62,854 bases of DNA from an uncultured archaeon (GCA_964508365.1 CAZDTP010000015.1:5285-68138), one strand, 5' to 3'; shown: positions 4,853 to 21,202, numbered from the stretch's first letter. A program made the numbers and translations. Notes: a model not told the origin generated them from the letters alone.

Positions 4853-5458
4853 TTATATTGCTTTACCCGATAGTTTCTTATAATGGTTAAGTACAGCTTG
4901 CCTAGCAGCGTAGACAAAAGCTCTTTTCACATTAACTCCCGTAATAGCTATAGTTTCGTAAATTAAGCAGTGGTTAAGTTTTGCAGTATCCAGTACTTGC
5001 CTTAACTTAGAAATCTCCACGATATCTTCTAAATCTCTTTTGTTTGCTAATACAACTATTGGTACTTCAGGTGGATCAAAAAGCGCTGGTGGAATTAATC
5101 TATCTCCATAGAACTTGAGTAATTCTTTAAGAGACCAAATATTCTCACCCCACTGATCTATTAGACTATCCCATGTAAATATCACAGCATCTGTACCCTT
5201 CAAAACTGTTTGACGTTGAAATTTATGTCTGCGTTGCCCTGCTACGGTGTAAACCTGAAAAACTACATTAGAAACTCTTGCTACTACACGATCAAAAAAC
5301 AAGGTTCGTCCAGTAGGGTCCTGAATTTGTTGCATATCCCCACTTGCAAGACCCTCTCGATTGTAAACCCATTCTAATGCCGTGGTTTTTCCCCCGAGAG
5401 AAGGGCCGTAAAAACAAATTTTGAAAACAAGAGTTCCGTCTCCTCGTCTACTTGGCAA
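4853..5458 (-). CDS. MglA-like small GTPase
   Basis: KICFYGPSLGGKTT, GRTLFFD (MglA signature with intrinsic Arg), YTVAGQ, NKRDL. GAGGT SD lies 8 nt before TTG. Confidence 0.85.
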   Translation of the reverse strand: MPSRRGDGTLVFKICFYGPSLGGKTTALEWVYNREGLASGDMQQIQDPTGRTLFFDRVVARVSNVVFQVYTVAGQRRHKFQRQTVLKGTDAVIFTWDSLIDQWGENIWSLKELLKFYGDRLIPPALFDPPEVPIVVLANKRDLEDIVEISKLRQVLDTAKLNHCLIYETIAITGVNVKRAFVYAARQAVLNHYKKLSGKAI

Positions 5459-5567: not shown

Positions 5568-6725
5568 TTAATAAAAAGGATTATGATAGCGACCCTCATC
5601 TTGCTTATCTTGGGAATCCAAAAATCTCTCTTTCAATTCTTTATCAATTAATCCCTCGATATGACAAAGATATTCGTATTCATCTTTAACACATAGTGTT
5701 ATAGCAACTCCGAGTTTATTCATACGGGATGTTCTTCCTATTCGGTGTACATAATTTTCTGGATATTTAGGAATATCGTAATTAAATACATGGGATATAT
5801 TATCGATATCTAAACCCCGTGCTGCCACATCAGTGGCGATTAGTAGATTAATTTTGTGGTCTTTAAATAAATTTAAAATCTTTTCTCTTTGAAATTGCGA
5901 TAAATCTCCCGAAATGAGATCTGCTCTATAAGCGAAATTATCGAGCGATTTCAACCTATTTCTTAACCAAGAAGCTGTTTTCTTGGTGTTTACGAAGACC
6001 AAAAGGTGCTTAGGTTTTTCTCTTCGTAGAATTTTCAAGAATGTTTTGAGTTTATCGCTATAATTATCTATCATGTAATAATATTGTCTCGTATTTCCAA
6101 CAGTCAAGTTATCTCTACTCAAATTGAGAAATTTGAATTGATTCTTTGAGTATTTCTTTACTAATTCTCTGATTCCGTTATCAAAAGTAGCAGAGAAAAG
6201 CATGAATTGATAATCCGTATGGATTTGATCTAAAATATATTTCACATCAGGAGTAAAACCCATATCAAACATTCTGTCGGCCTCGTCGACGACCGCGAAT
6301 TGTATATCGTTCAACCTTAACTTTTTTCTTTTGTATAAATCGATTATTCTCCCAGGAGTTCCAACGATGATGTTTATTCCCTTTTCCAATTTCGTTATTT
6401 GGTCATTGATAGACACCCCCCCATATATTGGAAGTGCCTTTACCTTTGAATTTCCGAGTTCTCTGATAACTTCGTAAACTTGAGTCGCCAACTCTCGCGT
6501 TGGGACTAAAATTAAAGCCTCATTGCGCTTATATTCCATACTTTCTAAAATTGGAAGAACAAAAGCTAAAGTTTTGCCACTACCCGTCCTCGCTTGAGCC
6601 ATAATATTTTGGCCCTTTAAAATTAAAGGTATAGACTTTTGTTGGACAGGTGTGGGATTTAAAATATTTATTTTTTTTAACGCATTAACGTTATATTCGT
6701 TAATTCCTAATTCTGTAAAATTCAC
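5568..6725 (-). CDS. DEAD-box RNA helicase (CshA/DeaD-like core)
   Basis: Q motif, GSGKT, PTRELA, GG, TPGR, DEAD, SAT, ARGLD, HRIGRT. Confidence 0.95.
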   Translation of the reverse strand: MNFTELGINEYNVNALKKINILNPTPVQQKSIPLILKGQNIMAQARTGSGKTLAFVLPILESMEYKRNEALILVPTRELATQVYEVIRELGNSKVKALPIYGGVSINDQITKLEKGINIIVGTPGRIIDLYKRKKLRLNDIQFAVVDEADRMFDMGFTPDVKYILDQIHTDYQFMLFSATFDNGIRELVKKYSKNQFKFLNLSRDNLTVGNTRQYYYMIDNYSDKLKTFLKILRREKPKHLLVFVNTKKTASWLRNRLKSLDNFAYRADLISGDLSQFQREKILNLFKDHKINLLIATDVAARGLDIDNISHVFNYDIPKYPENYVHRIGRTSRMNKLGVAITLCVKDEYEYLCHIEGLIDKELKERFLDSQDKQDEGRYHNPFY

Positions 6726-6856: not shown

Positions 6857-9022
6857 TTATATCTGAAAAACGACTTGTTTCGTTAATATATCCAATTTTT
6901 TTAACTTTATGTTAATAAAAGTTCTAACTTTTTCAGATGTTATGTTTTTATTATTAAATACTAAATCTTGTACGATGGAGTGGTATTTTTGAGATTTTTT
7001 AGCTAATTTTCTGTGAATCTCATTGTCGTTATCATATAAAGGTATTGGGAAAGAGAATGGTCTTTTGTGAATGTGCCTACTTGATTTAATCACCTTAATA
7101 TTCTTTGATATAACTGGAGAATTGAAAATAGCTGATAAATAATGTGCCTCGTTTATTGAATTAGTAGAAAAATAATAATTTTCCGAACAAATAATAATGT
7201 TATGTTCTTCGTTATCAATAACAGCTGATTTTAGATGTGAGCCACTTGCGTTGTAAATAACAATATATTGTTCATTATTCGCTTGTTTAGTTAATTTGTT
7301 CCAATAATTTAAGTTTAAAAAGAGTGAATCAATATTGCTGGTTCCTTTTTTATTTTTTTTGTAGAAATTATTATTTTCAGTGTAAAAGCTTAGAGCTTTA
7401 GGATTATTATTTAAAAGTTTTTCATCCCACTGTAAGGAACGAGTTATGGGTAAAAAGACATTTTTAAATTCTTTGATGCAAAAAGGAATCAAATCTTTGT
7501 TTAAAAAAGACTTAAATCCAAATTTAGTTTCAATTTCTTTTTTTTGAAAGCTATACTTCCAGACCTTCTTAGACCGTATATTTATATTAGGATCGGAAGA
7601 TATTTCTAAGAAACTATCATATATTTTATCAATTTTAAAGAAAACGAGTGATCTAGGGACTAAAGTTGCTCCTTGAAAGAAGAGAGTTTTATAGGGGCTT
7701 ATTGAATGCATATCCAAGAATTTCAATTCTTTTTCGGGCAAAATGATTTTGGCTCCTCTTTCGTTATATTCAAAACTAGAATACATTGTTTCTTCTTGAA
7801 GTTCGAGATTACTATTAAATATTTTCGCTTTAATCGGATATTTTTCTGTAATCTTCAACTCCGATCTTGTACCTACATATTCAGCTTTCAAACAGATATG
7901 GTCAACATTAAAGAGATAGTTATTTGGGAAATCCCAAATTTCAATCTTGTAAAATATGGAGAAACTTCGGAACTTAAAGCAATGATCTCCATTTAACACG
8001 CTCTTGGGCATGACAAAGAATAAAATTCCCTTAATTTTTAGAAATTTTAGGGGTATTGTGAAGAAAAAAATTGATGCCAATTCAATGTGAGTAATATATT
8101 GGCTGGAAGGCTTAATCTCTAATAACTCTGATAATGTACGGATTTTTAATTGATACGATTTATTAGTAATGTCTTTATATGTTAGCCATGGGGGATTGCC
8201 AATAATTAAATCAAATGATTTGTAAAGCATTGATATCTCCCTTTCTATGTTTGGTTTGGATTGCTCAGGAAAGAGAGAATCGATTAAAAAGATATTAATT
8301 TTCGGCATTTTTCCAATTTCTCCATTAAAATAATCTAAAAATAACAATAAAAAATTCACCTTTGCTGTGAAGGTTGCTAAAGGATTGATATCAAACCCAT
8401 ATATGTTATCAATTGCTTCGGTTATTACCGATTCCTTATTATCAGAATTAAAAATTCGAACTATGAGTTTTATTAAAAAACTACCAGAACCACAAGAAGG
8501 ATCTAATGTTTTTAAACCAATTTTATATGATTCATTTATCATTTTTTCAACAAGGTTTGACGGCGTATAAAATTCACCGATTTTATGTCGTGTCACGACA
8601 TGAAACACATGTTGATATAATTCATGAAAATTATCTTGTCTAGCTAGCCTTGCTCCCCCGAAAAATTTTCTTATCTCAGAAATAAGTGCTTCATCCAATT
8701 TAGGACAGAAGAATAATTTAAGTTCATTTAAATTATAATGGTCGTAGATTGTTTTATTTTCGGATGTATTAGCATTTAATAATATTAATATTTTCAAAAT
8801 CGAAACATAATATGAATGTTTGAGAAAAAGAGATTGTTCGATTTCCTTGCCGTAAATTTTTTTAAACACCGATTCCCATAAACGAAACTTTTTTTGAAAA
8901 CCACTTTTATTCAATTCCGCTTGTCTTTTTAAAAAATTAGAGGTTTCTTTATAAAAATTTGTTCCCAATCCAAAGAATTCCACAAATTGTTTTGAACTTA
9001 TTACTTTTTTGTTTTCGACCAT
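6857..9022 (-). CDS. N6-adenine DNA methyltransferase with target-recognition region (Eco57I/type IIG-like MTase module)
   Basis: GEFYTP, DPSCGSGSFL, GFDINP and GNPPW motifs; no obvious N-terminal nuclease domain. Confidence 0.85.
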   Translation of the reverse strand: MVENKKVISSKQFVEFFGLGTNFYKETSNFLKRQAELNKSGFQKKFRLWESVFKKIYGKEIEQSLFLKHSYYVSILKILILLNANTSENKTIYDHYNLNELKLFFCPKLDEALISEIRKFFGGARLARQDNFHELYQHVFHVVTRHKIGEFYTPSNLVEKMINESYKIGLKTLDPSCGSGSFLIKLIVRIFNSDNKESVITEAIDNIYGFDINPLATFTAKVNFLLLFLDYFNGEIGKMPKINIFLIDSLFPEQSKPNIEREISMLYKSFDLIIGNPPWLTYKDITNKSYQLKIRTLSELLEIKPSSQYITHIELASIFFFTIPLKFLKIKGILFFVMPKSVLNGDHCFKFRSFSIFYKIEIWDFPNNYLFNVDHICLKAEYVGTRSELKITEKYPIKAKIFNSNLELQEETMYSSFEYNERGAKIILPEKELKFLDMHSISPYKTLFFQGATLVPRSLVFFKIDKIYDSFLEISSDPNINIRSKKVWKYSFQKKEIETKFGFKSFLNKDLIPFCIKEFKNVFLPITRSLQWDEKLLNNNPKALSFYTENNNFYKKNKKGTSNIDSLFLNLNYWNKLTKQANNEQYIVIYNASGSHLKSAVIDNEEHNIIICSENYYFSTNSINEAHYLSAIFNSPVISKNIKVIKSSRHIHKRPFSFPIPLYDNDNEIHRKLAKKSQKYHSIVQDLVFNNKNITSEKVRTFINIKLKKLDILTKQVVFQI

Positions 9023-9189
9023 TCTCTATCAAGTATAAAATCCCAATCAAATTTATTTTCAGAAATCGAGTAAGAGATATTGTCATCTGCTATAAAATTA
9101 GTCTCTTCTTTTTCTTCTGTATCCTCTGACTTCTCATATTTAGATTGATCTGTCATTTTTATTTTAACATTCCTCTTTTCTCCATTCAT
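9001..9189 (-). CDS. Small acidic hypothetical protein
   Basis: ATG start, co-oriented in an apparent operon, overlaps the MTase start by 22 nt. Confidence 0.45.
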   Translation of the reverse strand: MNGEKRNVKIKMTDQSKYEKSEDTEEKEETNFIADDNISYSISENKFDWDFILDREWSKTKK

Positions 9190-9256
9190 AGTTTTTATGA
9201 CGAGTGTAAAATTAATATTCTTATTTTTAGAAGCAAAATCATAAAAGTATTAATTA

Positions 9257-9793
9257 TTATCTCCTCATAAAGGATGGGAGCATTAAACTAAATATTTCAG
9301 CGATTTTTCTGAGTTTGGCGCTTTCCTTGATTTGTGTAACAATAAGAACAGATTTTTCTAGTTCTTCTTTATCTAATGAGCCACCCGAATAAATAGCTTC
9401 CTCAGTATTGAAAACTAACAGATACCTAACATTTGGGTTATTAATGATGCTTACTCCTGAAGTTTGTTTTAGATCGTCATAGATTTCTTGATATATTTTT
9501 GGAATATTTCCTCTATCGTTAGTAATGATAAGTATTGGAATTCCTTTCTCAGTTAGCTTTTTAAGTTCTATGCTGTAAAATTTATCAATTTTAGGTGAAA
9601 CTATATTAAGTTGAATGGATGTTGAAGTAATCAGAGTAATTAAATGCTCATTGAGAACATTCTTGCGTTCAGGACCTCCCGAAGATTCTAAATTAATCAT
9701 TCCTACTAATGATAATACCTTATTTTCTAAATTTTGTACCTCACTCTTGAGTCTGGTATTTTCAACACGGAGTTCAATAATCCTATCTGACAT
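9257..9793 (-). CDS. Coiled-coil plus PLD-like (Nuc/TrmB-type) fold protein lacking the HKD motif
   Basis: N-terminal heptads, then QLNIVSPKID...KGIPILIITND...NPNVRYLLVFNTEEAIYSGGSLD, which is PLD-fold order without HxK/GSxN. Confidence 0.55.
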   Translation of the reverse strand: MSDRIIELRVENTRLKSEVQNLENKVLSLVGMINLESSGGPERKNVLNEHLITLITSTSIQLNIVSPKIDKFYSIELKKLTEKGIPILIITNDRGNIPKIYQEIYDDLKQTSGVSIINNPNVRYLLVFNTEEAIYSGGSLDKEELEKSVLIVTQIKESAKLRKIAEIFSLMLPSFMRR

Positions 9794-9896
9794 ATTAGAC
9801 CAATATATGTTTCTAAATTTAATTTTCTAATATGAATACTTTTAATTAAGTTTAAGCAAAACGAAGGTATTACACTATAACTATAGATTCATTTTT

Positions 9897-12494
9897 CTAA
9901 CTTAATTTTTTCCACGGCTTTCCAAAAAGAATAAAGCTAGATATCGCTAGAGATCCTTCTAAATCAATGTTCTTTACTCCTTCCTCTGCGGATAAATCAT
10001 CAAATTTCTTTTCTACAAGTTTAGTCATTTTATTTGCCATACATGCTTGCCGTGCTTTCATAAGGGAAACCCCCTGACTAAGATCATTGAATAAGTTGAG
10101 ATAAAAGTTAGCGATTATTTCCTTTGTCTCGTTATTAAAAATCGGATAATTTCTGGACATTATCCCCGTAATTCTCTCATAATCGAAATATTCTACAATT
10201 TCTCCAAAAGTACGTAAAACATTCTTTAACTTTTTGCCTTCAATATCATAAATTTGAGAATTAAAAAATAAAAACGGTTTTTCTGCGTTAGGGTTCGCTT
10301 GTATTGACTTATTAATATCATTAAATGTTATTATTTTATCATCGTTGGTGAGGAAAAAGCTGTCCCGTGGATTCCACTTTGAATAAAAAATATTTCCAAC
10401 AAAATGGATGATATGATTCGATCCAGTTTCTATATGAGTTAGAATATTATATCGAGAAGAATTCGCCCCCATTAATATATTTATTTGATTTACTTCTTCG
10501 CGACCGTTGAAAAATTCAGTTATATAGTTAAATTCATTATTTCCCGATTCAAAAGGAAATATTAACTCTTTTGATTTAATTTCTTCGTTCCACCTTATAG
10601 GTCCTGAAGCATTTATAGAATCGATGATTAAGACATTGATTTTACCGTCTTTCGTTAGATTTCCTTCTTTTTCAGTTGAATCGTGCCCAAAAGTCACCCC
10701 TCCAAGAGGTGGTTCCCCAATGATATACCCAATGGAATATTTTAATAAGAAAAAATTATTGTCATATACTAGTTCGAAAGGAATCGTCATTTTATCTAAA
10801 ATAAAATAAATTTCAGGTGTAATATTTAAAGACTTAATCTCAAACTGCTCTAAAAAGGTGCGGATTTTAATAGGAAGAAATAAGTATAGCAATCTGCCGA
10901 ATTCATTTACGCTAAAGTCATATTTTTTTTCAAGATTATCTGAGAAAATGTCATTATAAATATCTATTATATGTGCATCGTTCCAATATTCGTTGAAAAT
11001 TGTTCCTTCCACTACATCATCATCAACAGATATCATTCGAATAGAAATTAAACCATCGGAGTTGATCCTAAAAATCATCTGTTTTATTACAAAACCTTCT
11101 TCAAATCCTGTAAAAAGTAAGTTTTCCTCTCCAAAAGAGTATATATCTCTTCTAAGTGCTTCAGTCTCGTTATATAAAAAAAGCGGATCGTCAATTGCAT
11201 TCAATAGATTTTTCTCTAAATATGGTAATATTTTTTGAGCGAGTTTAAAATCTTTTTGCTCATATAACACACGATAAAACATCATATGCCAAAAATCCTT
11301 TTGCTCTAAGGAGAAAAATAGAGACTTAAATTTCCATAAGAAATTACAAGTGTAAAAGAAGTGATACAATTGGGCATTAGTTTGAGGTATTTTCAAGTGT
11401 GTATTTAACTTTTCAATAGATTGTAAGAGATATTTCTTTTCCTTCATTTCTACGAATTTTTTGCATGCTTCAACCCAAAGTTCAATTAGAATATTATCAT
11501 ATCCAAGATCCGTCTGATATAAGAATAGGTCCTCGAGAAAATCGTAAATTTCAAATGCAATCTCAAATCTATTTCTCGTAATTGCAAAATCTATAAATTT
11601 CCTAATATACGTAACAGCGTCTCCATAAGAATGGTACACATGAATTTTAGAGAATAGATTTTTTATAACGGTTATTATCCATGTATGTTCTCCAATGTTG
11701 TTTAAGTAGTAAATTAATTCTTCTAAATCCCCCAAAATTATATTAAAATTTCGTTCATTAATTGAAATCTTACCTAAATTACTAAATTCGTTCTTTAAAT
11801 AACCAGGGATTCTATTCACTAAGATTTTAATCATTAACTTTACGAATTCTTCAGAATTCTCCATAAGTTGGAAGTTCACATTCACATTCTCAATAAAAAC
11901 ATAAAGAAATAAAGCCCGTTTCCCTGGTTCGAGTTTAAAAATTGTTCTACCTAAAACCTCCATACTTAGATGAAAAAATTCCTGAGGAAGAACAGTTTTC
12001 CTTAAAAACATCAAAACTAATTGCAATTCGATTAGCTTGATGTAATCATCCCTTTCAATTACTTTAACACAGAAAGAATTTATAAATTTTGTTATACCCG
12101 TTTGAGATAACGAATCCATTTTAGTAAATGATTTAAGCAAGTTAGTTGCAAAGTTGTTGAGTAGGTAAAAATCATCTAATTTAGACAAAAACGAGAAAAA
12201 GCGTTTGTATGCATCAATATATCTAATAAAATCTATATTAATACTTTCTTCGGTCCTACGAATCAAAGAATTGATATACATCCACCAAGAATTTGATATA
12301 ATCATTATTAATTGGTGCTTCTTTTGGATATCGAGCCACTCAGTTTTTTCGATATCAAAATATAAGTCGGTTAATAATCTATCTGCCCAAAGATGATTCG
12401 AAGAGTATAATAATTTTCTGCCTTGAATAATTTTCTGTTGGAATTCCTTTAAGAATTCTGATTGTGTGTTTAAATTAATAACCATCCTTTCCAC
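9897..12494 (-). CDS. Alpha-helical solenoid plus C-terminal CHAT (caspase-like) domain, catalytic dyad lost
   Basis: TIPFELV, IIHFVGN (cf. HFxGH), LFFNSQ (cf. FLNAC), IANFYLNL, SLMKARQ and SSFILFGKP (cf. AFVLYGDP). Confidence 0.75.
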   Translation of the reverse strand: MERMVINLNTQSEFLKEFQQKIIQGRKLLYSSNHLWADRLLTDLYFDIEKTEWLDIQKKHQLIMIISNSWWMYINSLIRRTEESINIDFIRYIDAYKRFFSFLSKLDDFYLLNNFATNLLKSFTKMDSLSQTGITKFINSFCVKVIERDDYIKLIELQLVLMFLRKTVLPQEFFHLSMEVLGRTIFKLEPGKRALFLYVFIENVNVNFQLMENSEEFVKLMIKILVNRIPGYLKNEFSNLGKISINERNFNIILGDLEELIYYLNNIGEHTWIITVIKNLFSKIHVYHSYGDAVTYIRKFIDFAITRNRFEIAFEIYDFLEDLFLYQTDLGYDNILIELWVEACKKFVEMKEKKYLLQSIEKLNTHLKIPQTNAQLYHFFYTCNFLWKFKSLFFSLEQKDFWHMMFYRVLYEQKDFKLAQKILPYLEKNLLNAIDDPLFLYNETEALRRDIYSFGEENLLFTGFEEGFVIKQMIFRINSDGLISIRMISVDDDVVEGTIFNEYWNDAHIIDIYNDIFSDNLEKKYDFSVNEFGRLLYLFLPIKIRTFLEQFEIKSLNITPEIYFILDKMTIPFELVYDNNFFLLKYSIGYIIGEPPLGGVTFGHDSTEKEGNLTKDGKINVLIIDSINASGPIRWNEEIKSKELIFPFESGNNEFNYITEFFNGREEVNQINILMGANSSRYNILTHIETGSNHIIHFVGNIFYSKWNPRDSFFLTNDDKIITFNDINKSIQANPNAEKPFLFFNSQIYDIEGKKLKNVLRTFGEIVEYFDYERITGIMSRNYPIFNNETKEIIANFYLNLFNDLSQGVSLMKARQACMANKMTKLVEKKFDDLSAEEGVKNIDLEGSLAISSFILFGKPWKKLS

Positions 12495-12528
12495 TACTTC
12501 TTATAATTTTAAAATTTTTTAAAATTGT

Positions 12529-13713
12529 TTAATCAATTTCTTGTTGCTCTAACTCCTGATGAGATGGATTTCTAATCCATCCTTTCTTTAGTTGATCTTT
12601 TGAAAATAGAACTGAAGCTCCAATCCAACCCATGTTTTCTCTTCCGGAGGCTGCTACTACTTTTATTATTGGTCTTAACTTTTCTGAAAAAAACCTCTGT
12701 AATTCTACTTCTAATCTTTCACTTAAACCTACAATCAAGCTACTTCCTCCTGAAAGTATAACATTTGAAAGGAGTTCCTCCCAATTTTCTCTGTCCCACG
12801 ACATTACTACTTTTGAAATAGCTTCAGCTAATCCCATATAATCGACATGAATGATCTTAGGATCAAATAGAGGTTCTGACAAGAGGAACCGCTCAGAGTT
12901 CAATTTTAATTTGCTACCATCGGGTAAATCAAGAATTCGATCGTATTTTGTTAAACCTCCTTTAACCTTTTTCTTTTCTTCAGTAGGATCGAGGATACAA
13001 AGGGATATCTTCTCTTTAATCTCCTTAGCAATCATTTTATCGAGATAAGTGTTTTTTGAGGAGCTAATCTTGCTTAAAATTAGATTTAGGAGATAATTAG
13101 TAATATTTTTTCCTGTTATAGGAAACATATCTCTCGCCATTATGTTAGTAAACCCATGAAAGATTGAAGAAATTGATGTATAAGATTCTCCTATATTCAC
13201 GATAATTCCGTTGGATTTTTGTAATGTCGACAGAATAGCTTGACTTTCGGGTAAAAACAAGATATAGGGGAAGTTAAAAGAATTAAAAAATACTTCTTGG
13301 AGTTTTGTCTTTTCTAATTCCGATTTATAGAAGGGAGTTATGATTATTAACGGTTGTTTAAAATGTGTATCCACTGGAATGTTTAATTGTTGGTAGTAAT
13401 GGAAAAAAAACTTGGAAAGAATCTTATAGTTTTTCTCTTTACTAAACTCCCGAATTTTCAAAATATTTTTATATTTAAGCGCATCAAAACCAACTAAATG
13501 AGTTTGATTATCCGTATCAAGAAATATTTCCTCTAATCCACTAATAGTTTCTGATCCACTGATATCAGAAGTAAAGAGATAATCAGTAATATCAACATAA
13601 ACACTAGGCACAATAATATCCGGAAAATCTCCTCCTGCCCATCCTAGTCTAAAATTATCGCTTCCAATATCGAGAACTAATGGAATTAGATAATTGTTTT
13701 CAGTATTTGCCAT
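12529..13713 (-). CDS. Actin family protein (divergent actin-related protein)
   Basis: LVLDIGSDNFRLGWAGGDFP, ESQAILS, IVNIGESYT, EIKEK, ERFLLSEPLFDP, ILSGGSSLIVGLSERL and WIGASVL align with actin motifs. Confidence 0.9.
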   Translation of the reverse strand: MANTENNYLIPLVLDIGSDNFRLGWAGGDFPDIIVPSVYVDITDYLFTSDISGSETISGLEEIFLDTDNQTHLVGFDALKYKNILKIREFSKEKNYKILSKFFFHYYQQLNIPVDTHFKQPLIIITPFYKSELEKTKLQEVFFNSFNFPYILFLPESQAILSTLQKSNGIIVNIGESYTSISSIFHGFTNIMARDMFPITGKNITNYLLNLILSKISSSKNTYLDKMIAKEIKEKISLCILDPTEEKKKVKGGLTKYDRILDLPDGSKLKLNSERFLLSEPLFDPKIIHVDYMGLAEAISKVVMSWDRENWEELLSNVILSGGSSLIVGLSERLEVELQRFFSEKLRPIIKVVAASGRENMGWIGASVLFSKDQLKKGWIRNPSHQELEQQEID

Positions 13714-13767
13714 GATTTTACTTATTAGATTTGTTAGTGTCAGGATTTTAAAAAAGAATAAATAATA

Positions 13768-14496
13768 TCAGAATGATTGTTGCTGATGAACATACTCATC
13801 TGATAACTTTTTTAATTGATATTCTTTCACTTGTAATTCTAATAATCCTAAAACTTTCTTAAATTCACTTGACATCGATTCAACATCTACATCGGTAATC
13901 TTTTCAACTTCATCTCTTTTTAATTTGAATTGATCAAGATTATAATGGATTTTTTCATAAATACCACTTATTGAGGTGACTAGCTCCTCTGTATTTTTCT
14001 TTGTTATCTTTCTCATTTTTCTAAGAATTGAGAGAATAGAGGATATAGAATTTTCCCACTGGTTATATCTATCTACATAACCATCAAATACATCCTCAAA
14101 AAAAATAGTTAATTTTTCGTATATGTTCTCTTCCTTTGAGAATGAGGGTGTTTTAGTAGTACTTGATGTTTGAGCATCAGCATTTTCTGAACTTTTTTCT
14201 TCTTCAGGAATATCTGAAATGGGGATTCTTTCCTTAAGGGGTGCTCTTTCTGAAAGAGGAACTTGTTCCATTACGTAATCTTCAGCAATTTGCTTTTTTG
14301 TTTCATATGAAAGTTGGGGGGCTATTTTTTCTTCTTCCTCATTTGGAGAGATAAAACTTTTTTCTTCGGTGACTACTTTAAGTAATCCATGTAAAGTAGA
14401 TTCGGTTTTCTTTGACGATTTTAATACATTATACATCTTTGGAGTAGAAGATTCTCCATTACTCTTTTCTTTATCTTTCTTTTTTTTCTTTGCCAT
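13768..14496 (-). CDS. Hypothetical protein: Lys-rich and disordered N-half, helical/coiled-coil C-half
   Basis: ATG ORF immediately upstream of the ARP; composition as stated. Confidence 0.7.
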   Translation of the reverse strand: MAKKKKKDKEKSNGESSTPKMYNVLKSSKKTESTLHGLLKVVTEEKSFISPNEEEEKIAPQLSYETKKQIAEDYVMEQVPLSERAPLKERIPISDIPEEEKSSENADAQTSSTTKTPSFSKEENIYEKLTIFFEDVFDGYVDRYNQWENSISSILSILRKMRKITKKNTEELVTSISGIYEKIHYNLDQFKLKRDEVEKITDVDVESMSSEFKKVLGLLELQVKEYQLKKLSDEYVHQQQSF

Positions 14497-14534
14497 TTGA
14501 TTTGCTCAACACTTCCTCTTTTGTTAATAATCAC

Positions 14535-14951
14535 TTATTCTAAAGAAAGGAACTCAACTTTGAGAGCTTCTCCTTTTTCTTTTAATATCTTTTCTAGCTC
14601 TTCTATGGGAAAACTTGGACTCTCCGAGATTACCGTCCATACCGCAGTTTTATTTTTTTCGACAATTACAGCTTCACTATACATCATACTAAGCTTTAAA
14701 TCTCCGAAAGCTGTTGCTAATTTAGCCAATGCTCCAGGAGTATCTCCCATAGATATTCTCAGTTTAATGAGATCGCTTTCACTTCGCAAACCCACTGGAG
14801 TAATCTTAATTTCTTTGGTTTCTGAGTCACTAATCATCATAAGTTGTGAATTTGTCGTAATTCCTAAAGATTTTCTTACAATTTGTGGAATTACAATCCT
14901 CCCTCGTTCGTCTATTGTAAGAATCTTGACTTCTTTCATTTTTCTGAACAC
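14535..14951 (-). CDS. AbrB-family regulator fused to ACT domain
   Basis: TIDERGRIVIPQIVRKSLGI (AbrB) plus DTPGALAKLATAFGDLKLSM (ACT). The likely start is ATG 14939. Confidence 0.85.
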   Translation of the reverse strand: MFRKMKEVKILTIDERGRIVIPQIVRKSLGITTNSQLMMISDSETKEIKITPVGLRSESDLIKLRISMGDTPGALAKLATAFGDLKLSMMYSEAVIVEKNKTAVWTVISESPSFPIEELEKILKEKGEALKVEFLSLE

Positions 14952-15055: not shown

Positions 15056-17230
15056 TTATTCAAGACGCTTTGCCTTCCCTATAATAGAAACATCCTTCAT
15101 AACTAATCCGTCTTTGTCAAAATTATATCCTGGTTGGCATCCACCGATCGATATAGTAACAATTCCTGGTTCTAGAAATCTTTCTCCATCTAAATTTACT
15201 ACTGAAAAATCTTTAGGCATTAGTTTAAATGAAACTTTTTCCTTTTGACCTTTTTTTAAGAAAACTCGCGTAAAACCTTTCAACTCTCTAATAGGTACTC
15301 TGAAATGAGTATTTTTTCTCGATACATAAAGTTGGATTACTTCCTCTCCTTTATATTCGCCTTTGTTTTCAATTTCAGCTTCCACCTCTAACGCCTCATT
15401 AACATTTATCTCTTCATTAGAAAAATTAAGATTAGAATAGCTAAATTTAGTATAACTGAGACCAAATCCAAAGGAATACAACGGAGTATCTTTAAAATAA
15501 CGATATGTTCTCCCTTCCATACTATAATTCCTAAACTCTGGTAATTGTTCAATAGATTTATAGAATGTAACCGGTAATCTTCCAGCAGGATTATAGTCGC
15601 CGAAAATTACGTCAGCTACAGCATTTCCCCCTTCTTCTCCAGGATACCATACAAACAATATTGCAGGTATGTGTTCTTTTGCAAAATTCACAGATATAGC
15701 GCTACCTCCTGTAAGTATTAGAATAATTGGCTTACCGATGGCATATACTTCCTTAAGAAGGTCTTCTTGAACTCCCGGTAAATCTATCTCTAACCTATCT
15801 CCGTGGAGATCAGACTGTGGTGCCTCACCTTCTTCACCCTCAAGTTGCGGTGAGATACCTAATATCAAAAATACAATATCGGAATTCTGAGCAATGGTTA
15901 TCGCTTCTTCAAAACCTTCTTTTGATTTATCTTTCAAAGGACAACCCTTTACAAATAAGATTTCAGTATCTGAGGAAGTTTTGTTCCTAATCCCTTCTAG
16001 TATTGTTGTGTATTCTGAAGGTTTTCCGTTATAATTTCCTAATAGAACTTCCAGACTATCTGCATTTGGCCCTATTACTGCTATTTTTTTTACATCTTTT
16101 CTCAAAGGTAGGATTCCGTCTTGATTCTTAAGAAGCACAATTGATTCTCTAGCAGCTTTTAAAGCAAGCCGGCGATGTTCTTTACAATCATTTTTTTCGT
16201 AGGGTATTTCCGTGTATTTTACCAGTTCTGGGGGATCAAACATACCAAGTAAAAACCTTGCTCGAAATAGATTTCTTAACGACTCGTTGAGTGTAGTCTC
16301 CTTGAGCAACCCTTTTACAATAGCATCCTTTAGCCATTTCCACCGTTCTCTTCGCGTTTTCCTTGTTATCCCCACTTTACAAATTAAATCTAAACCACTA
16401 TTAAATGCTAGAGCTGCGGCCTCTTCAGGAGTTTCGACCACTTTATGATTTTTAAATATGTCATATACTGCTCCACAGTCCGAAACAACATGACCTTCAA
16501 ATCCCCATTTATCTCTCAGTACTTCTTTTAGCAAAAACTTACTAGCACAACAAGGTTCGCTATTTACTCGGTTATAAGCCCCCATAATTGCCTCTGCTTG
16601 TCCTTCAACTATACATGCTTCAAACGCAGGCATATATGTTTCCCATAAATCTTTTTTGCTAACTTTAGCGTTAAAAAAGTGTCTTTCAGATTCTAAACCA
16701 CTATAGGCAACATAATGTTTGGGTGTAGCAACTAGCTTTAAATACCGAGGATCATCACCTTGTAAGTTTTGAATAAATGTTATTCCCATTTTCGAAGTTA
16801 AAAAAGGATCTTCTCCGTAAGTTTCTTGACCTCTTCCCCACCGAGGATCTCGAAAAATATTCACATTTGGAGACCAAAATGTTAATCCTTGAAAGATTTT
16901 TCTGCTATTGTTTCTCACAGCTTCGTGATGTTTAGCTCTTCCTTCGGTTGATATAGCATCAGCAACTTCTGCCATTAAATTTACATTAAAACTTGCTGCC
17001 AATCCAATTGCTTGTGGAAAAACAGTCGCTATACCGGCAAATCCTACTCCATGAAGAGCTTCACTCCACCAATTATATCTTGGAATATTTAATCGTTCGA
17101 TTCCTTCAGCATCGTTAATGACTTGTGAAATTTTTTCATCTAAGTTCATTCGAGATATTAAATCATCTATTCTAGCTTCAATAGGTTGAGAATGATCTAA
17201 ATACATCACATTCTGAGTTTTATTAACCAT
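15056..17230 (-). CDS. Glycoside hydrolase family 3 (beta-xylosidase/beta-glucosidase) with Fn3-like C-terminus
   Basis: WWSEALHG, WSPNVNIFRDPRWGRGQETYGEDP, KHY, VVSDC (nucleophile Asp), NPAGRLPVTFY, EVIQLYV. Confidence 0.95.
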   Translation of the reverse strand: MVNKTQNVMYLDHSQPIEARIDDLISRMNLDEKISQVINDAEGIERLNIPRYNWWSEALHGVGFAGIATVFPQAIGLAASFNVNLMAEVADAISTEGRAKHHEAVRNNSRKIFQGLTFWSPNVNIFRDPRWGRGQETYGEDPFLTSKMGITFIQNLQGDDPRYLKLVATPKHYVAYSGLESERHFFNAKVSKKDLWETYMPAFEACIVEGQAEAIMGAYNRVNSEPCCASKFLLKEVLRDKWGFEGHVVSDCGAVYDIFKNHKVVETPEEAAALAFNSGLDLICKVGITRKTRRERWKWLKDAIVKGLLKETTLNESLRNLFRARFLLGMFDPPELVKYTEIPYEKNDCKEHRRLALKAARESIVLLKNQDGILPLRKDVKKIAVIGPNADSLEVLLGNYNGKPSEYTTILEGIRNKTSSDTEILFVKGCPLKDKSKEGFEEAITIAQNSDIVFLILGISPQLEGEEGEAPQSDLHGDRLEIDLPGVQEDLLKEVYAIGKPIILILTGGSAISVNFAKEHIPAILFVWYPGEEGGNAVADVIFGDYNPAGRLPVTFYKSIEQLPEFRNYSMEGRTYRYFKDTPLYSFGFGLSYTKFSYSNLNFSNEEINVNEALEVEAEIENKGEYKGEEVIQLYVSRKNTHFRVPIRELKGFTRVFLKKGQKEKVSFKLMPKDFSVVNLDGERFLEPGIVTISIGGCQPGYNFDKDGLVMKDVSIIGKAKRLE

Positions 17231-17354: not shown

Positions 17355-19634
17355 TTATTCTTTATGAGCCTTCATTTTTACAGTTAAATCTCGAGCGCGT
17401 TTAGAATACCAAATTAGTAATTCTCCTGCATCATCTGGTTTGAAATACTCTCCACCACACAATGCAGCAGCTCTTGTCATCATTCCATCATCTGGATTTC
17501 CAAGACCGACTATATATATTACAACATTAGGATTTTCTGCGAAAATTTTAATTGTTTTGAGAAATTCATCTCCATCTGTTGGAATTCCATCTGTTAGGAG
17601 AATAATCATAGTAGGTTGGGGATTTCCAAGGCTAAGCTTATCAAATTCACTCAATACTTGATGTGCCTTGATCATTGCTTGTCCCATATTGGTCGATTGT
17701 CCATATGCATTTCCTATGCGATCTACTATCAAGCGTGCTGCTTCTTCTAATACTCCCTTCTTGCCACTAGCAGAATCCATATAATAGCTGTTTCCAAAAG
17801 GTAATATCTGAGCTTCGTCTGCAAATCTAATCACAGAAACTTTTTCTCCAAATCCACGTCCAACCTTTTCACTTAAGAATAGAACAGCTGCAAAAGCAGC
17901 AGATATTCTCCTTGGAATGTTGATACCTGCTTTAAAATGTTTTAAGAATTCTTGAATTTCCTTAGATTCCATTGCTGCTTTGATACCTTCAATAGCAGGC
18001 GCTATATTTTGAACGAGGACATCCCTAGCCATCATCGAACGGCTAATATCTATTATCAAAATAGCGTTAAAAGGGACTAACCCTGTTGGGCTTAGATTGA
18101 TTGCTGTATTTTCTGTAACTTGAGCTAAAATATCTCCTGTTAAATCTGGAGTAGTCGTTATAATTGAACATGCGATATTTACTGCGTTCCATCTAAGTTT
18201 AATTCCTTTAAAAATTACATAGTTTGCTAGCCAACCTTTCAAAGAATCTACATTTTGTCGAGCGGTGCTAATAATTTCCCACATATTTTCACCTGAGATT
18301 GGCGAAATGCCTAACGATATATTCTGCAAGGGAATGATTGGTCGTGGATTGTTATACACTTTTACTTCGAAGCTACCAATCCCTGATGCCTCTAAAATCT
18401 CGCTATCTATAATAATGGTGTTATCGGGAACAGATTCTAAAATCTCTACTTTGCCTGCTCCAATAGCTCCAGTAAGTTCGTCTTCAAACGCAAGTACGCT
18501 ATCGTGGACAATTGTGAGCGTATGCTGCGTTCGAGGGCTTACAAGAGCATAACCCATTAAATTAGGCTGTGATTGCACTTCTAACATAAGTTCAGAGGCT
18601 TTTTGGATAGGAGGTTCAGTAGAGTAAACAACAATTTGTTGACCATAAATGTTAGTATCTTCTTTCGTATCCCTACTCATTCGAATTTCAGTAGGTGTTA
18701 TCATTACTTGATCAATTCTAGCAGAACCTACAGCTCGCGTGAGAGGGTCTTCCCAACCAATAAGCATACCTTGTCCTAAACCTAACTGCTGAATTACCGC
18801 GCTACCTACTTGGACTCGTCCACCTTCAACAGAATCATCTATAATGGGAGTTAAAACTATACCGTTCTTTTGACTACTTAACATATTGACATCAATTCTA
18901 TTAGGATAAGGATCCACAGGAGTTGTTTGAACCTCAACTTCTTGTCCAGTACTGTGAAGAGGAACATGACCCGGGGTAGGTAGGATCGTCTGAGGAGGAG
19001 GAGCTTGTGGTAAGGGTGTTGGTGAAGGCGGTATGGGGGTAGGGCTTAATTGAGGAGTAGGTGTTTGTATAGATTGTGGTGTAGGAGCGGATATAGGAAT
19101 TGGTGTAGGAGGAGGACTTGGAGTAGGGGTTATCTGTGGTGGAGGAATTGGTTCGGGCATTCTAGTGGGAATTGGAATGTGTCCACTAACAGGTTGTTGT
19201 ATAGGTTCTGGTTGTCGAGTAGGAAGAGGTTGCGGGATTGGTTTTGGGGCTTGCATTTGAGTAGGTCTTGTTGGTAACGGTGTTAATGTAGGTTGCGTGG
19301 GTGTTGGAGGAGGGGGCGCAACTGGTTTGATACTAGGGACTTTTGGGATTTGTATCTTGGGCGTAAGTAACCCCGTACTACTCATTGGTCGAAGTAATAA
19401 TTCCACACCCTTAAATTCAAGAAAGTCGACTATATTTTTTGATACTTGACCAGCAAAATCTAATACCATATTCGAAATTTCAACTACAGCAGTCGTCGTT
19501 TTATTATTATCTAAATTTAACACTTCTATAGAATCGCCGTTTTTTATTCCTAGTTTATTGGCATTTTCTTGACAAATAACTATTTTATTTTGCAAACCTT
19601 CTATAATATCCACAAAAATTTTAATTTCAGACAT
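17355..19634 (-). CDS. Multidomain protein: CDC48-N-like double-psi barrel(s), Pro/Thr/Gln-rich linker, C-terminal vWA domain
   Basis: ICQENANKLGIKNGDSIEV (DPBB-like), about 150 aa Pro-rich tract, two further DPBB-like repeats, and MIDAS elements DISRSM, TNMGQAM, LLTDGIPT. Confidence 0.7.
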   Translation of the reverse strand: MSEIKIFVDIIEGLQNKIVICQENANKLGIKNGDSIEVLNLDNNKTTTAVVEISNMVLDFAGQVSKNIVDFLEFKGVELLLRPMSSTGLLTPKIQIPKVPSIKPVAPPPPTPTQPTLTPLPTRPTQMQAPKPIPQPLPTRQPEPIQQPVSGHIPIPTRMPEPIPPPQITPTPSPPPTPIPISAPTPQSIQTPTPQLSPTPIPPSPTPLPQAPPPQTILPTPGHVPLHSTGQEVEVQTTPVDPYPNRIDVNMLSSQKNGIVLTPIIDDSVEGGRVQVGSAVIQQLGLGQGMLIGWEDPLTRAVGSARIDQVMITPTEIRMSRDTKEDTNIYGQQIVVYSTEPPIQKASELMLEVQSQPNLMGYALVSPRTQHTLTIVHDSVLAFEDELTGAIGAGKVEILESVPDNTIIIDSEILEASGIGSFEVKVYNNPRPIIPLQNISLGISPISGENMWEIISTARQNVDSLKGWLANYVIFKGIKLRWNAVNIACSIITTTPDLTGDILAQVTENTAINLSPTGLVPFNAILIIDISRSMMARDVLVQNIAPAIEGIKAAMESKEIQEFLKHFKAGINIPRRISAAFAAVLFLSEKVGRGFGEKVSVIRFADEAQILPFGNSYYMDSASGKKGVLEEAARLIVDRIGNAYGQSTNMGQAMIKAHQVLSEFDKLSLGNPQPTMIILLTDGIPTDGDEFLKTIKIFAENPNVVIYIVGLGNPDDGMMTRAAALCGGEYFKPDDAGELLIWYSKRARDLTVKMKAHKE

Positions 19635-19700: not shown

Positions 19701-20090
19701 CTATTGAATTGGATACCTCCTTCCGATTTCGCCAGCGTAATATCTGAAAACTGTCACGATCTTTCCCAAGTCCTCAATCTTTCTGCTAGCACCCATTAAA
19801 AAGAATCTTCCAGCTCCACTTAAGATAATAAAGGCATTAATTCCCCTTAAAACTACTTCTAATAAATTATTATATCCTAAAGAGTCGATCGCATCATGTC
19901 CACTTTGCATTACTACAGCGCTTAAGCTTGAAAATAAATCGGGGTCAACATCGTAATCCGGTATACATGAAAAAGCAAGTCGTAGACCATCATTAGTAAC
20001 TAATGCAAGTGCTTCTAATTCGGTGTGTTCTGTAATATTTCCAAGAAATTTAGAAAGACTACTGGCTTGGTCTTGAGTTAAATCGCTCAT
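19701..20090 (-). CDS. Roadblock/LC7 (LAMTOR2/MglB-like) domain protein
   Basis: ALALVTNDGLRLA, DLFSSLSAVV, LLEVVLRGINAFIIL pattern; 129 aa. Confidence 0.8.
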   Translation of the reverse strand: MSDLTQDQASSLSKFLGNITEHTELEALALVTNDGLRLAFSCIPDYDVDPDLFSSLSAVVMQSGHDAIDSLGYNNLLEVVLRGINAFIILSGAGRFFLMGASRKIEDLGKIVTVFRYYAGEIGRRYPIQ

Positions 20091-20353: not shown

Positions 20354-21202
20354 TTATTTATTTTCCAACTGAGTTTTAATCTGGTCTTTTAGAATTTCCT
20401 TCTTAGATTTGAACTCTACCTTTGCATCCATTGGACCACTTATCCGTTTAAGAAATTCCACAGCTAAAATTTTTCCATTTTCACTTAGCACTCGAGGAGA
20501 GTATTCTTCAGCAAAAAAGACTCCTTCCGGAATAGCTCCAACCTTGGAAATTTCTTTGGAGACTTGTTTTTTACCCAAAAAAGTTTGAACTTTTTCAACG
20601 ACGGAATAGGCATGGTCTCCAATTATAATTAATTCTCTTTCGAAACCGTCTGGAATTTTAATTTCTTCTAATTTTTGCATAATTTCGTCAAAGTTAATGT
20701 GAGAATCTTCTTGAGTATATGCATCAAACGATTCCTTGCCGGTATACAAGGGACCCGTATTTTGAGAAATTCTATCTCTGGAACCCGCAATGTTCATACC
20801 TTGAGCGGGTTCTGGCACTCCGAATGGATCTTTATCTCTCAAAGGATGTATAGCTGGGGTGGTTACTTTTGCGGCTTTGGCTTCCATCTGAATCTCTTTA
20901 GCGATTCCACCTTCGGTTTTTCCACCGATAAGTTTTAAGAAATCTGGATCCTCTTCGCCTTCGTCAAGGGGTACTACTCCAAAATGCATACCAACTTGCC
21001 CGCGTATGTCTTGACTCCTTTTAGCTCCAATAAATTTGGATCTTACATTACTATTTACCCCTTTCCATAAAAACACTTTACGGTACTCGTCAGAGACTAC
21101 TACATAACATTCCTCAGAGCTAAGTATATCTTTAATAGGACCTTCTGATGCAATATTTGTTGTAGTACCATCGGGATTGATTTGAAATAATTGTGTGTGA
21201 AT
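20354..21202 (-). CDS. Gelsolin-domain protein (single gelsolin domain plus uncharacterised C-terminal domain); probable ATT start
   Basis: Frame extends 5' of the ORF call: IHTQLFQINPDG...ILSSEECYVVVSDEYRKVFLWKGVNSNVRSKFIGAKRSQ...LDEGEEDPDF is a gelsolin repeat. AAGGTG lies 8 nt before ATT at 21202; upstream in-frame TAA at 21217-21215. Confidence 0.8.
   Translation of the reverse strand: MHTQLFQINPDGTTTNIASEGPIKDILSSEECYVVVSDEYRKVFLWKGVNSNVRSKFIGAKRSQDIRGQVGMHFGVVPLDEGEEDPDFLKLIGGKTEGGIAKEIQMEAKAAKVTTPAIHPLRDKDPFGVPEPAQGMNIAGSRDRISQNTGPLYTGKESFDAYTQEDSHINFDEIMQKLEEIKIPDGFERELIIIGDHAYSVVEKVQTFLGKKQVSKEISKVGAIPEGVFFAEEYSPRVLSENGKILAVEFLKRISGPMDAKVEFKSKKEILKDQIKTQLENK

Follow-up and report, generated by a model that had tools for sequence, protein, structure and literature searches.

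A conserved gene cluster uniting a divergent actin-related protein with a predicted caspase-fold protein in one order of Asgard archaea

Introduction

Eukaryotic complexes of actin-related proteins (ARPs) combine an actin-fold protein with dedicated non-actin partners, and the ARPs of Asgard archaea are frequently invoked as signs of a cytoskeleton that is regulated and eukaryote-like. A described relative of the ARP examined here, UYP47647.1 of Ca. Lokiarchaeum ossiferum, was placed among Asgard and eukaryotic ARPs, and its transcripts were assayed by RT-qPCR with those of the other actin homologues of this organism, Lokiactin transcripts being the highest (Rodrigues-Oliveira et al. 2022, PMC9834061). 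In that study, UYP47647.1 appears only as one leaf of a tree and as an assayed transcript, and no mention of its neighbours, partners or function was found there or elsewhere in the literature; likewise, no function or partner was found described for any Asgard ARP. The other systems closest to this locus are Csx29, the TPR-CHAT protease of the type III-E Craspase, and separase, both with a caspase-fold domain placed after a helical solenoid, together with the nucleases and non-catalytic proteins that have the PLD alpha/beta sandwich.

Organization of the Gene Cluster

The window, that is, the whole stretch of 62,854 nt analysed here, comes from an uncultured archaeon (GCA_964508365.1 CAZDTP010000015.1:5285-68138). 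Six closely spaced ORFs described in the initial annotation were found in it, all on the same strand and with successive gaps of 38, 54, 34, 103 and 67 bp (Table 1). The proposed six-gene cluster is reduced here to five genes, spaced by 34-103 bp, each single-copy in the genome of the window and all under purifying selection (dN/dS 0.03-0.18; 0.03 for the AbrB-ACT gene). The remaining ORF, acid62, is probably not a gene. It sits in the 234-bp spacer ahead of a methyltransferase (MTase) gene and overlaps the start of the latter by 22 bp, it is missing from L003 and L004, two loci with neighbouring genes at about 90% identity, it is elsewhere conserved only in part next to the MTase start, and its dN/dS is 0.46-0.77. 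The overlap, the absences and the dN/dS led us to reject acid62 as a cluster member, and its earlier listing as an acidic peptide of the operon is therefore unsupported. A metabolic signature was absent, in line with the earlier view that this is not a metabolic operon. None of the five cluster proteins matched the PADLOC-DB 2.0 models, the downstream MTase alone matching type II/IIG models.

Table 1. Features of the cluster, in window coordinates
Feature	Description	Position	Strand	Basis
acid62	doubtful 62-aa acidic ORF	9001..9189	-	ORF only; no Pfam hit
PLD178	N-terminal coiled-coil helix and PLD fold, 178 aa	9257..9793	-	AF2, structure search
CHAT865	TPR-like solenoid and CHAT fold, 865 aa	9897..12494	-	AF2 model, structure searches
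ARP394	divergent actin-related protein	12529..13713	-	Pfam Actin 6e-51
hel242	lineage-specific basic/helical protein	13768..14496	-	alignments, profile search
AbrB-ACT	fusion of AbrB/SpoVT-type DNA-binding domain and ACT domain	14535..14951	-	Pfam, NCBIfam

Predicted Proteins of the Cluster

Judged from its sequence, ARP394 is a fast-evolving actin relative. It is a full-length member of the Pfam Actin family (PF00022; score 173.8 bits over residues 11-387, cut-off 27) and matches PDB actins over its full length at about 1e-35, the top matches being conventional actins and not an Arp. In a FastTree phylogeny it belongs to a long-branch clade that is distinct from Lokiactin and from two further clades of paralogues, and an assignment as Lokiactin was rejected on its position outside the short-branch Lokiactin clade. 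Identity to the other actin homologues of the same genome is 27-30%, and UYP47647.1 of L. ossiferum, in the same clade and at the syntenic position, is its orthologue. The phosphate-2 loop of ARP394 has degenerated, with NIGES replacing DIGDG (motif DxGDG), the equivalent of His161 is replaced, and the phosphate-1 and adenosine GG motifs are retained in family f1, leaving the canonical set of nucleotide-site motifs (phosphate-1 DxGS/T, phosphate-2 DxGxG, GG) incomplete.

The AF2 model of CHAT865 (pLDDT 83, pTM 0.72) comprises a helical solenoid (residues 8-450), a beta-rich domain (about 470-600) and a CHAT domain (about 617-865) with the caspase-hemoglobinase fold. Csx29 was matched both by Foldseek (1.4e-10), along with separase, DdvA and SAVED-CHAT, and by VIA (Z 18.7), followed by SAVED-CHAT (Z 16.5; 186 aa, 3.2 A) and the protease region of separase (Z 15.3; 290 aa, 4.0 A); further fold matches include metacaspase, caspase-7 and gingipain. 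The separase match covers residues 469-865, yet CHAT865 has no match among PDB chains at the sequence level and lacks the catalytic dyad. The Pfam CHAT match (PF12770) stays under the cut-off (4.5e-4, 20.2 bits against 24), the same family is precomputed on many orthologues, and database names of the relatives are 'hypothetical' or 'CHAT domain-containing'. The alignment confirms that the catalytic His-Cys dyad is missing from every orthologue: the His column holds N in 15 of the 16 and I in the other, and the Cys column holds Q, K, V, H or R, whereas five Asgard CHAT paralogues in the same profile alignment keep both residues (HxAGH, NACE).

PLD178 consists of a helix (residues 2-29), a PLD-fold domain and an invariant C-terminal LPxFMR tail (AF2 model, pLDDT 83). 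The predicted structure has the PLD fold, with VIA matches to NucT (Z 19.0; 141 aa, 2.3 A), Nuc (17.1), the DUF1669 domain of FAM83 (16.4), the TrmB sensor domain (13.9) and MITD1 (8.6); Foldseek returned the same families and, across the whole length, TrmBL2. These closest structures, nucleases and an archaeal chromatin protein, would fit a DNA-linked role equally well, an observation that was counted against the reading preferred below. At the sequence level, the profile matched NucT at E 0.0045, and Pfam PLDc_2 fell under its cut-off (0.033) in PLD178 itself; among the 17 orthologues, PLDc_2 was matched in 14, FilR1_middle in six and Regulator_TrmB in one, and UniRef names them 'TrmB C-terminal domain-containing'. 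No His or Lys is invariant among these orthologues, and the HxK(x)4D motif is missing. The invariant N121 appears to occupy the position of the HKD His, as placed by motif pattern and not by residue-level superposition. A complete TrmB/FilR1 regulator was rejected: the protein starts at the coiled-coil helix, without an N-terminal wHTH. Because it is without the HKD motif and resembles TrmB/FilR1-type sensor domains, from which it possibly derives, PLD178 may never have been an enzyme.

The protein hel242 starts with a polybasic N-terminal stretch (MAKKKKK), continues as an acidic, Pro-rich, disordered linker and ends in a conserved helical domain of some 115 aa, which is basic in the alignment. 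Its profile gave 81 matches in total among 1.84 billion representatives. All but four of them align along a large part or the whole of the profile and carry the domain at their C-terminal end; the four are weak, fragmentary matches at the bottom of the ranking, the weakest being a 1201-aa protein aligned in nine short stretches. No Pfam or NCBIfam family was matched, and neither HSA nor another family showed detectable similarity in profile searches. The 38-bp gap upstream of hel242 contains the SD-like sequence GAGGAAGTG. On the other side of this gap, the AbrB-ACT gene, a likely regulator of the cluster, matches Pfam MazE_antitoxin (AbrB/MazE; 2.1e-5, 24.8 bits against a cut-off of 24.7), Pfam ACT under the cut-off (7.4e-4, 19.7 bits against 27) and, over its full length, NCBIfam PRK08577 (1.6e-24; 86.5 bits, short of the equivalog cut-off of 140). 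Translation of this gene probably begins at the ATG at 14939 (MKEVKIL, matching orthologues).

The initial annotation had thus recognized a divergent ARP, an 865-aa solenoid with a dead CHAT domain, a basic/helical protein, which belongs to an orphan family, and an AbrB-ACT regulator, and these four assignments are borne out, the regulatory role of the last as a likely one. Its further claim of two enzyme folds stripped of catalytic residues holds for CHAT865; for PLD178, the coiled coil with a PLD fold and the loss of the HKD motif stand, and the descent from an enzyme is doubtful given the likeness to TrmB/FilR1.

Conservation and Co-inheritance of the Cluster

The order hel-ARP-CHAT-PLD was found in 16 fetched loci with all four genes (22-96% identity), which span three families (f1, f2 and f3) of one Loki-type Asgard order and include the two cultured species, Ca. 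Lokiarchaeum ossiferum and Promethearchaeum syntrophicum MK-D1. Neighbourhood conservation, which the initial annotation had named as a check, therefore shows an arrangement not unique to one genome. With the gene order retained at 22-45% protein identity in the other families, the arrangement is, on this comparison of loci, far beyond chance. The ARP gene is next to the CHAT gene at every locus that has them, and the distance between the two ranges from an overlap of 4 bp to 87 bp, MK-D1-type loci having 3-6 bp (start codons approximate). The hel242 gene is single-copy in 117 of the 134 f1 genomes, 11 of the 13 of f2 and the single genome of f3, and is present in 38/40 high-quality genomes of the class sample; it was not found in f4 or in other orders. 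The CHAT865 profile also matched 117 of the 134 f1 genomes, mostly at full length and with some fragments at contig ends, and no full-length relative was found outside the order.

The hel-PLD pair forms a near-universal, single-copy backbone in three lokiarchaeal families, with the ARP-CHAT pair nested between its two genes. In Ca. Harpocratesius (closed genome G032) and in genomes G025 and G030, hel and PLD are direct neighbours; the CHAT profile had no match in five genomes of Ca. Harpocratesius and genus g5, and the ARP clade of the cluster is absent from G032 and G030, the two sampled in the actin tree. This clade is restricted to genomes carrying the CHAT865 gene. The existence of hel-PLD neighbours without the ARP clade and CHAT in these two genera shows that ARP and CHAT are kept or lost as a pair; the two genes seem to be a module that is retained or lost jointly and sits inside a hel-PLD pair of greater age.

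The genes neighbouring CHAT865 at its locus are those for the ARP, PLD-fold and hel242 proteins, AbrB-ACT, MTase, GH3 and vWA. AbrB-ACT adjoins hel242 on its upstream side in f1, f3 (L014) and genus g5 (L027), and the loci of MK-D1, L. ossiferum and Harpocratesius lack it. Flanking genes differ by family. Those of f1 include vWA and a DNA-MTase-like gene, with vWA, roadblock and gelsolin genes at a distance of 3-6 kb from the cluster, and those of f2 encode Hef, PHP and a membrane protein; in the genome of the window, Hef and PHP are on other contigs. Since the flanks vary between families, the context fixes no process.

Possible Roles of the Cluster

We read the cluster as an operon specific to this order and passed on vertically, whose products most likely make up a protein assembly without enzymatic activity (probability about 0.55). 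Against this explanation, internal archaeal promoters could lie in the AT-rich spacers of 54 and 103 bp. In such an assembly, the ARP would not form filaments alone; the scaffold, shaped like separase and Csx29, would bind it as a stoichiometric partner, its solenoid and its dead substrate groove providing the binding surfaces. The proteins hel242 and PLD178 might associate by way of their helices and, with the polybasic N-terminus, anchor the assembly on a polyanionic surface, either membrane or nucleic acid, and AbrB-ACT, where present, would set transcription in response to a small-ligand signal. The initial annotation proposed a scaffolded complex built around the ARP. The co-occurring, adjacent ARP and CHAT genes agree with the scaffold, whereas the occurrence of the hel-PLD pair without the ARP in Harpocratesius and g5 means that the complex is not simply built around it; as the pair persists without ARP and CHAT in two genera, the ARP may be peripheral. 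As to the process, we lean towards the organisation of the cytoskeleton or of membranes, with Lokiactin either acted upon or working alongside. A bolder version, which we offer as speculation with the odds well against it, assigns the ARP to an archaeal ARP complex of its own with the pseudo-protease of separase shape; tethered by hel242 and the PLD-fold protein, this complex would cap, nucleate or anchor filaments of Lokiactin. On that view, an 'ARP plus scaffold' machine would have been invented independently at a pre-eukaryotic stage, and the TPR-CHAT lineage seen here might be distantly related to separase by descent.

A DNA- or chromatin-associated module, in which hel242 and the PLD fold would bind DNA and the ARP and scaffold would modulate this binding, much as nuclear Arps dock on a basic helical (HSA-type) segment, would be consistent with the closeness of PLD178 to Nuc, NucT and Zucchini nucleases, its match to the chromatin protein TrmBL2, the polybasic N-terminus and basic helical domain of hel242, and the Hef nuclease-helicase, PHP and DNA-methyltransferase-like neighbours. 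However, these neighbours are family-specific, not conserved with the core and, for Hef and PHP, on other contigs here; PLD178 has neither a wHTH or other DNA-binding domain nor nuclease residues, and hel242 has no detectable similarity to HSA or other families, so we hold this role to be rather unlikely. Also unlikely, in our view, is a ligand-sensing regulatory switch in which PLD178 would be a TrmB/FilR1-type sensor lacking the DNA-binding head and forming a signalling unit with AbrB-ACT, and the pseudo-CHAT, in the manner of the CHAT-containing anti-sigma factor DdvA, would be the partner that sequesters. The FilR1_middle and Regulator_TrmB matches of orthologues, the structural matches to TrmB and TrmBL2, the presence of DdvA among the fold matches of CHAT865 and the AbrB-ACT gene conserved upstream in f1, f3 and g5 point to it, but this gene is missing from three of the loci named above, the TrmB matches are weaker than the Nuc-type ones (Z 13.9 vs 19.0), and the ARP is left without a role.

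That the genes are neighbours by descent only, without shared function, would accord with evidence made up of adjacency and co-occurrence and with AT-rich spacers that may hold separate promoters; the order retained at 22-30% identity though both flanks were replaced, the joint loss of ARP and CHAT and their spacing of a few bases or an overlap make it very unlikely. A domesticated or decayed defence island (Craspase-like TPR-CHAT, PLD nuclease and methyltransferase), now with an abortive-infection or sensor role or none, is highly improbable. Csx29 is the best structural match of CHAT865, CHAT, PLD and Eco57I-type MTases are frequent in defence loci, and the MTase is syntenic downstream in f1. 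Nevertheless, this MTase linkage is confined to f1, the five proteins have no PADLOC match, cas or CRISPR genes do not adjoin, the cluster is single-copy and near-universal with an inheritance that tracks taxonomy, the genes are under strong purifying selection, and no orthologue has the catalytic residues.

The cluster supplies one clade of ARPs with three or four specific proteins as candidate partners. Both cultured lokiarchaea carry the cluster, and genomes naturally lacking ARP and CHAT give a comparison, which makes the question of ARP function directly testable.

Comparison with Known Systems

CHAT865 has the solenoid and caspase-fold layout of Csx29 and separase; it differs from them in being without the His-Cys dyad, Cas7-11 or CRISPR context, and in having a partner gene that encodes an actin fold. 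A type III-E Craspase was rejected, as neither Cas7-11/gRAMP nor a CRISPR array is at the locus and PADLOC gave no match. PLD178 has the same PLD alpha/beta sandwich as Nuc, NucT and Zucchini and the non-catalytic FAM83 DUF1669, MITD1 and TrmB/TrmBL2/FilR1 proteins, and, as in TrmB-family proteins, a leading helix precedes the domain; unlike them, it has no HKD motif, wHTH head or MIT domain. To our knowledge, its LPxFMR tail is not known from any of these families.

No paper describing the cluster partners of ARP394 was found, in agreement with the initial statement that no function is described for this gene combination, and ARP394 falls in one clade with UYP47647.1 of L. ossiferum. With respect to eukaryotic ARP complexes, the TPR-CHAT, PLD and hel242 folds match no subunit of Arp2/3, dynactin or the HSA-Arp modules of INO80/SWR1. 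As no partner resembles a known subunit, the likeness proposed initially is an analogy only, and the part of it that stands is a logic that the two may share, namely an actin fold with impaired motifs accompanied by dedicated non-actin partners.

Organization of the Gene Cluster

The cluster, which includes a gene for an actin-related protein (ARP), comprises six co-oriented minus-strand ORFs separated by 38, 54, 34, 103, and 67 bp, in a region of about 30% G+C flanked upstream by a GH3 glycosidase and a vWA protein and downstream by an Eco57I/N6-type methyltransferase. Every cluster gene is single-copy in the 4.07-Mb genome, and the five larger genes showed dN/dS values of 0.03-0.18 against relatives at 78-96% protein identity. 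The six-gene cluster of the initial annotation is thus upheld in its coordinates, strand, and gaps, and in purifying selection on the five larger genes, with the exception of acid62, a 62-aa acidic ORF. This ORF had a dN/dS of 0.46-0.77, runs 22 bp into the start of the methyltransferase gene, and is missing from two relatives whose neighboring genes are ~90% identical; in other relatives its conservation is restricted to the part adjoining the methyltransferase start. For these reasons, it was not counted as a cluster member.

Genes of the cluster and its surroundings in the window
Gene	Position	Strand	Pfam result or description
DEAD-box helicase	5568-6725	-	
Small GTPase	4853-5458	-	Arf/Ras-like
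Methyltransferase	6857-9022	-	Eco57I/N6-type, 721 aa
acid62	9001-9189	-	No Pfam match
PLD178	9257-9793	-	PLDc_2, sub-threshold
CHAT865	9897-12494	-	CHAT, sub-threshold
ARP	12529-13713	-	Actin, 6e-51
hel242	13768-14496	-	No credible match
AbrB-ACT	14535-14951	-	AbrB/MazE + ACT
GH3 glycosidase	15056-17230		GH3
vWA759	17355-19634	-	vWA, long Pro-rich tract
Roadblock/LC7	19701-20090	-	
Gelsolin	20354-21202	-	So called in the initial annotation, from sequence alone

Judging from the nucleotide sequence, co-transcription of the cluster is favored by the short gaps, by overlapping or near-abutting genes in other genomes, by a T9 run following GH3 upstream of the cluster, and by the SD-like GAGGAAGTG ahead of hel242; the AT-rich spacers of 54 and 103 bp could hold internal promoters. 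Upstream, vWA759 is syntenic beside AbrB-ACT in genomes of the window's family, and the GH3 gene sits between them in some genomes only. The methyltransferase retains intact DPSCGSG and NPPW motifs, and its C-terminal part is specificity-like. Its alignment to 1100-aa type IIG enzymes is confined to their methyltransferase portion, which indicates that the protein has no nuclease domain.

Conservation and Gene Order

The order to which the window belongs includes four families, here f1 (the window's own) to f4. A CHAT865 profile matched 117 of 134 genomes of f1, the single f3 genome (1/1), and 6 of 13 of f2, mostly over the full length, with some matches reduced to fragments where a contig ends. 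Matches outside the order were all partial and confined to the CHAT domain, in proteins of other sizes. The hel242 domain was present in 117/134, 11/13, and 1/1 genomes of f1, f2, and f3, respectively, and in 38 of 40 high-quality genomes, and was found in none of four f4 genomes (63-88% complete) and none of seven genomes of the class's other orders. All 16 fetched loci carrying the four genes keep the order hel-ARP-CHAT-PLD, down to 22-45% identity, so that the neighborhood, when checked across Asgard genomes, is not unique to this one. The spacing from ARP to CHAT ranges from a 4-bp overlap to 87 bp (start codons being approximate); an apparent ARP-CHAT fusion at one locus (L019) was ruled out, as translation of the junction showed the two frames to be separated by a stop codon and 27 bp. 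Exact-sequence look-up placed UYP47645.1 (PLD), UYP47647.1 (ARP), and UYP47648.1 (hel) in the cluster of Ca. Lokiarchaeum ossiferum, and QEE15654.1 (PLD) in that of Promethearchaeum syntrophicum MK-D1.

The hel and PLD genes are direct neighbors in the closed genome of Ca. Harpocratesius repetitus, in a second Harpocratesius genome, and in a further genus (g5). No CHAT865 profile match occurred in five genomes of Harpocratesius and g5, and the single clade formed by the cluster ARPs in a midpoint-rooted FastTree phylogeny of the actin family, read without branch support values, has no member from the two genomes of these genera sampled (G032 and G030). Harpocratesius and g5 are placed in f2; as the four genes occur together in the remaining f2 genera and in both f1 and f3, the simplest reading is that ARP and CHAT were lost jointly.

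The surroundings of the cluster differ by family, and AbrB-ACT lies upstream of hel only in f1, f3, and g5. In f1 the flanks are the vWA gene and, directly downstream, the methyltransferase (50-67% identity), which neither f2 nor f3 has at this position. In f2 (MK-D1, L. ossiferum, and Harpocratesius), genes for a Hef helicase-ERCC4 nuclease and a PHP-domain protein lie upstream, and the downstream flank encodes a 405-aa polytopic membrane protein with no homologue in the window's genome (flanks at L016:3092-6412 and 11436-12653; L025; L066); in MK-D1, the gaps are tight, at 24-36 bp. In a rearranged variant (L067, G327:C113, 3035-9236, minus strand), a divergent CHAT865-like gene that is truncated where the contig stops precedes a hel-like gene, which is followed by a gene for an 834-aa protein without Pfam match, which proved unrelated to CHAT865; no PLD-fold gene was seen at this locus.

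Features of the Encoded Proteins

The AF2 model of CHAT865 (865 aa; pLDDT 83, pTM 0.72) predicts a helical solenoid at residues 8-450, then a beta-rich domain, and at the C-terminal end an alpha/beta domain of the caspase type. Foldseek ranked Csx29 TPR-CHAT first (1.4e-10), followed by separase, the anti-sigma factor DdvA, SAVED-CHAT, and gingipain. VIA-align gave Z scores of 18.7 with Csx29, 16.5 with SAVED-CHAT (186 residues, 3.2 A), and 15.3 with the separase protease region (290 residues, 4.0 A, model residues 469-865); the CHAT865 profile had no match among PDB sequences. When five CHAT paralogues from other Asgard genomes were aligned to a profile of the C-terminal half, their dyad positions read H(F/Y)AGH and NACE, whereas the 16 CHAT865 orthologues carry N (I once) and Q/K/V/H/R. 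These replacements, at positions kept in the paralogues, show that the protease site is lost across the whole family, in agreement with the dead CHAT domain originally proposed.

The model of PLD178 (178 aa; pLDDT 83) opens with a 28-residue helix that leads into a PLD fold, closest to NucT (VIA-align Z 19.0, 141 residues, 2.3 A), then Nuc (17.1), FAM83 DUF1669 (16.4), and Zucchini (15.5), with lower scores for the TrmB sensor domain (13.9), TrmBL2 (13.3), and MITD1 (8.6). No His or Lys is invariant among 17 orthologues, and an invariant Asn occupies the position of the HKD His, as inferred from the motif pattern. Pfam matches among them were PLDc_2 (14/17), FilR1_middle (6/17), and Regulator_TrmB (1/17), and UniRef names these proteins 'TrmB C-terminal domain-containing'. 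The helix and PLD fold annotated initially therefore stand, but the term "dead" may not apply, as PLD178 may be a sensor/dimerisation-type fold that was never an enzyme. Docking of its invariant LPxFMR tail into the TPR solenoid became a less likely proposal, since the tail is also conserved in genomes that lack CHAT865.

The hel242 protein begins with MAKKKKK and continues through a variable linker, acidic and Pro-rich, to a conserved helical domain of ~115 residues. Searched against 1.84 billion representatives, the domain profile retrieved 81 proteins, all of its own family, which matched much or all of the profile in a C-terminal placement, except for the four lowest-ranked, weak and fragmentary matches; an Atlas feature search returned its own cluster alone. 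The UniRef name 'FlaD/E domain' of the L. ossiferum orthologue found no support when 17 orthologues were scanned with Pfam, and Forkhead, PBC, and MbeD matches were weak, below cut-offs, and taken as helical noise. Orthologues from f1 share LDxALKSSKKTE(T/S)xLxxLLK near the N-terminus (window ~14380-14440, residues ~20-40), recalling the LKKTET actin-binding motif of thymosin/WH2. The motif is missing where f2 orthologues co-occur with the ARP, and with so Lys-rich a protein the resemblance may be fortuitous.

The ARP aligns to actin along its full length and was rightly described as atypical: NIGES replaces DIGDG in the phosphate-2 loop, the His161 equivalent is lost, the subdomain-2 loop is longer, and the actin C-terminal helix is missing; the phosphate-1 and adenosine GG motifs are retained in f1. 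Five further actin-family genes occur in the window's genome (contigs C22, C60, C90, C23, and C1). Those on C22 and C60 fall in the Lokiactin clade, and that on C1 (508 aa) in a long-insert clade (~510-560 aa) found in all sampled relatives. The L. ossiferum frame (L066:9700-10815, minus strand) has no ATG, GTG, or TTG ahead of its phosphate-1 motif (DILVELGS), and its annotation differs between GenBank (UYP47647.1, 307 aa from an internal Met) and RefSeq (362 aa). These observations point either to a non-canonical start or to truncation of the published sequence. PMC9834061 counts UYP47647.1 among three non-Lokiactin homologues in L. ossiferum and assayed its transcripts by RT-qPCR.

Possible Role of the Cluster

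The cluster is real and conserved, being vertically inherited, near-universal, single-copy, and under purifying selection. It consists of a backbone pair, hel and PLD, and a nested pair, ARP and pseudo-CHAT, that is jointly retained or lost; two of its products have enzyme-like folds without an intact catalytic site, and the ATPase loop of the ARP is degenerate. Its products most likely form an assembly that is stoichiometric and non-enzymatic, where the solenoid/pseudo-protease would hold the ARP and the helical pair of hel242 and PLD178 would act as a tether through the polybasic segment.

We favor a cytoskeletal or membrane role on the basis of the vWA, roadblock, and gelsolin neighbors in f1 and the identity of the ARP. 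A role linked to DNA is a live alternative, consistent with the nuclease- and TrmBL2-like structure matches of PLD178 and with DNA-related neighboring genes, although these vary by family. An origin in defence is unlikely, given that PADLOC returned no match for any cluster protein and that the cluster is distributed like core genes. Searches of a literature collection on the neighbors of UYP47647.1, on Asgard with CHAT or separase, and on locus tags returned nothing beyond the ARP entry of PMC9834061, in line with the earlier statement that no described function is known for this combination; to our knowledge, the ARP-CHAT-PLD-hel partnership is undescribed in print. The cluster is made of known folds, in a combination that matches no known ARP complex and no known CHAT or PLD system.
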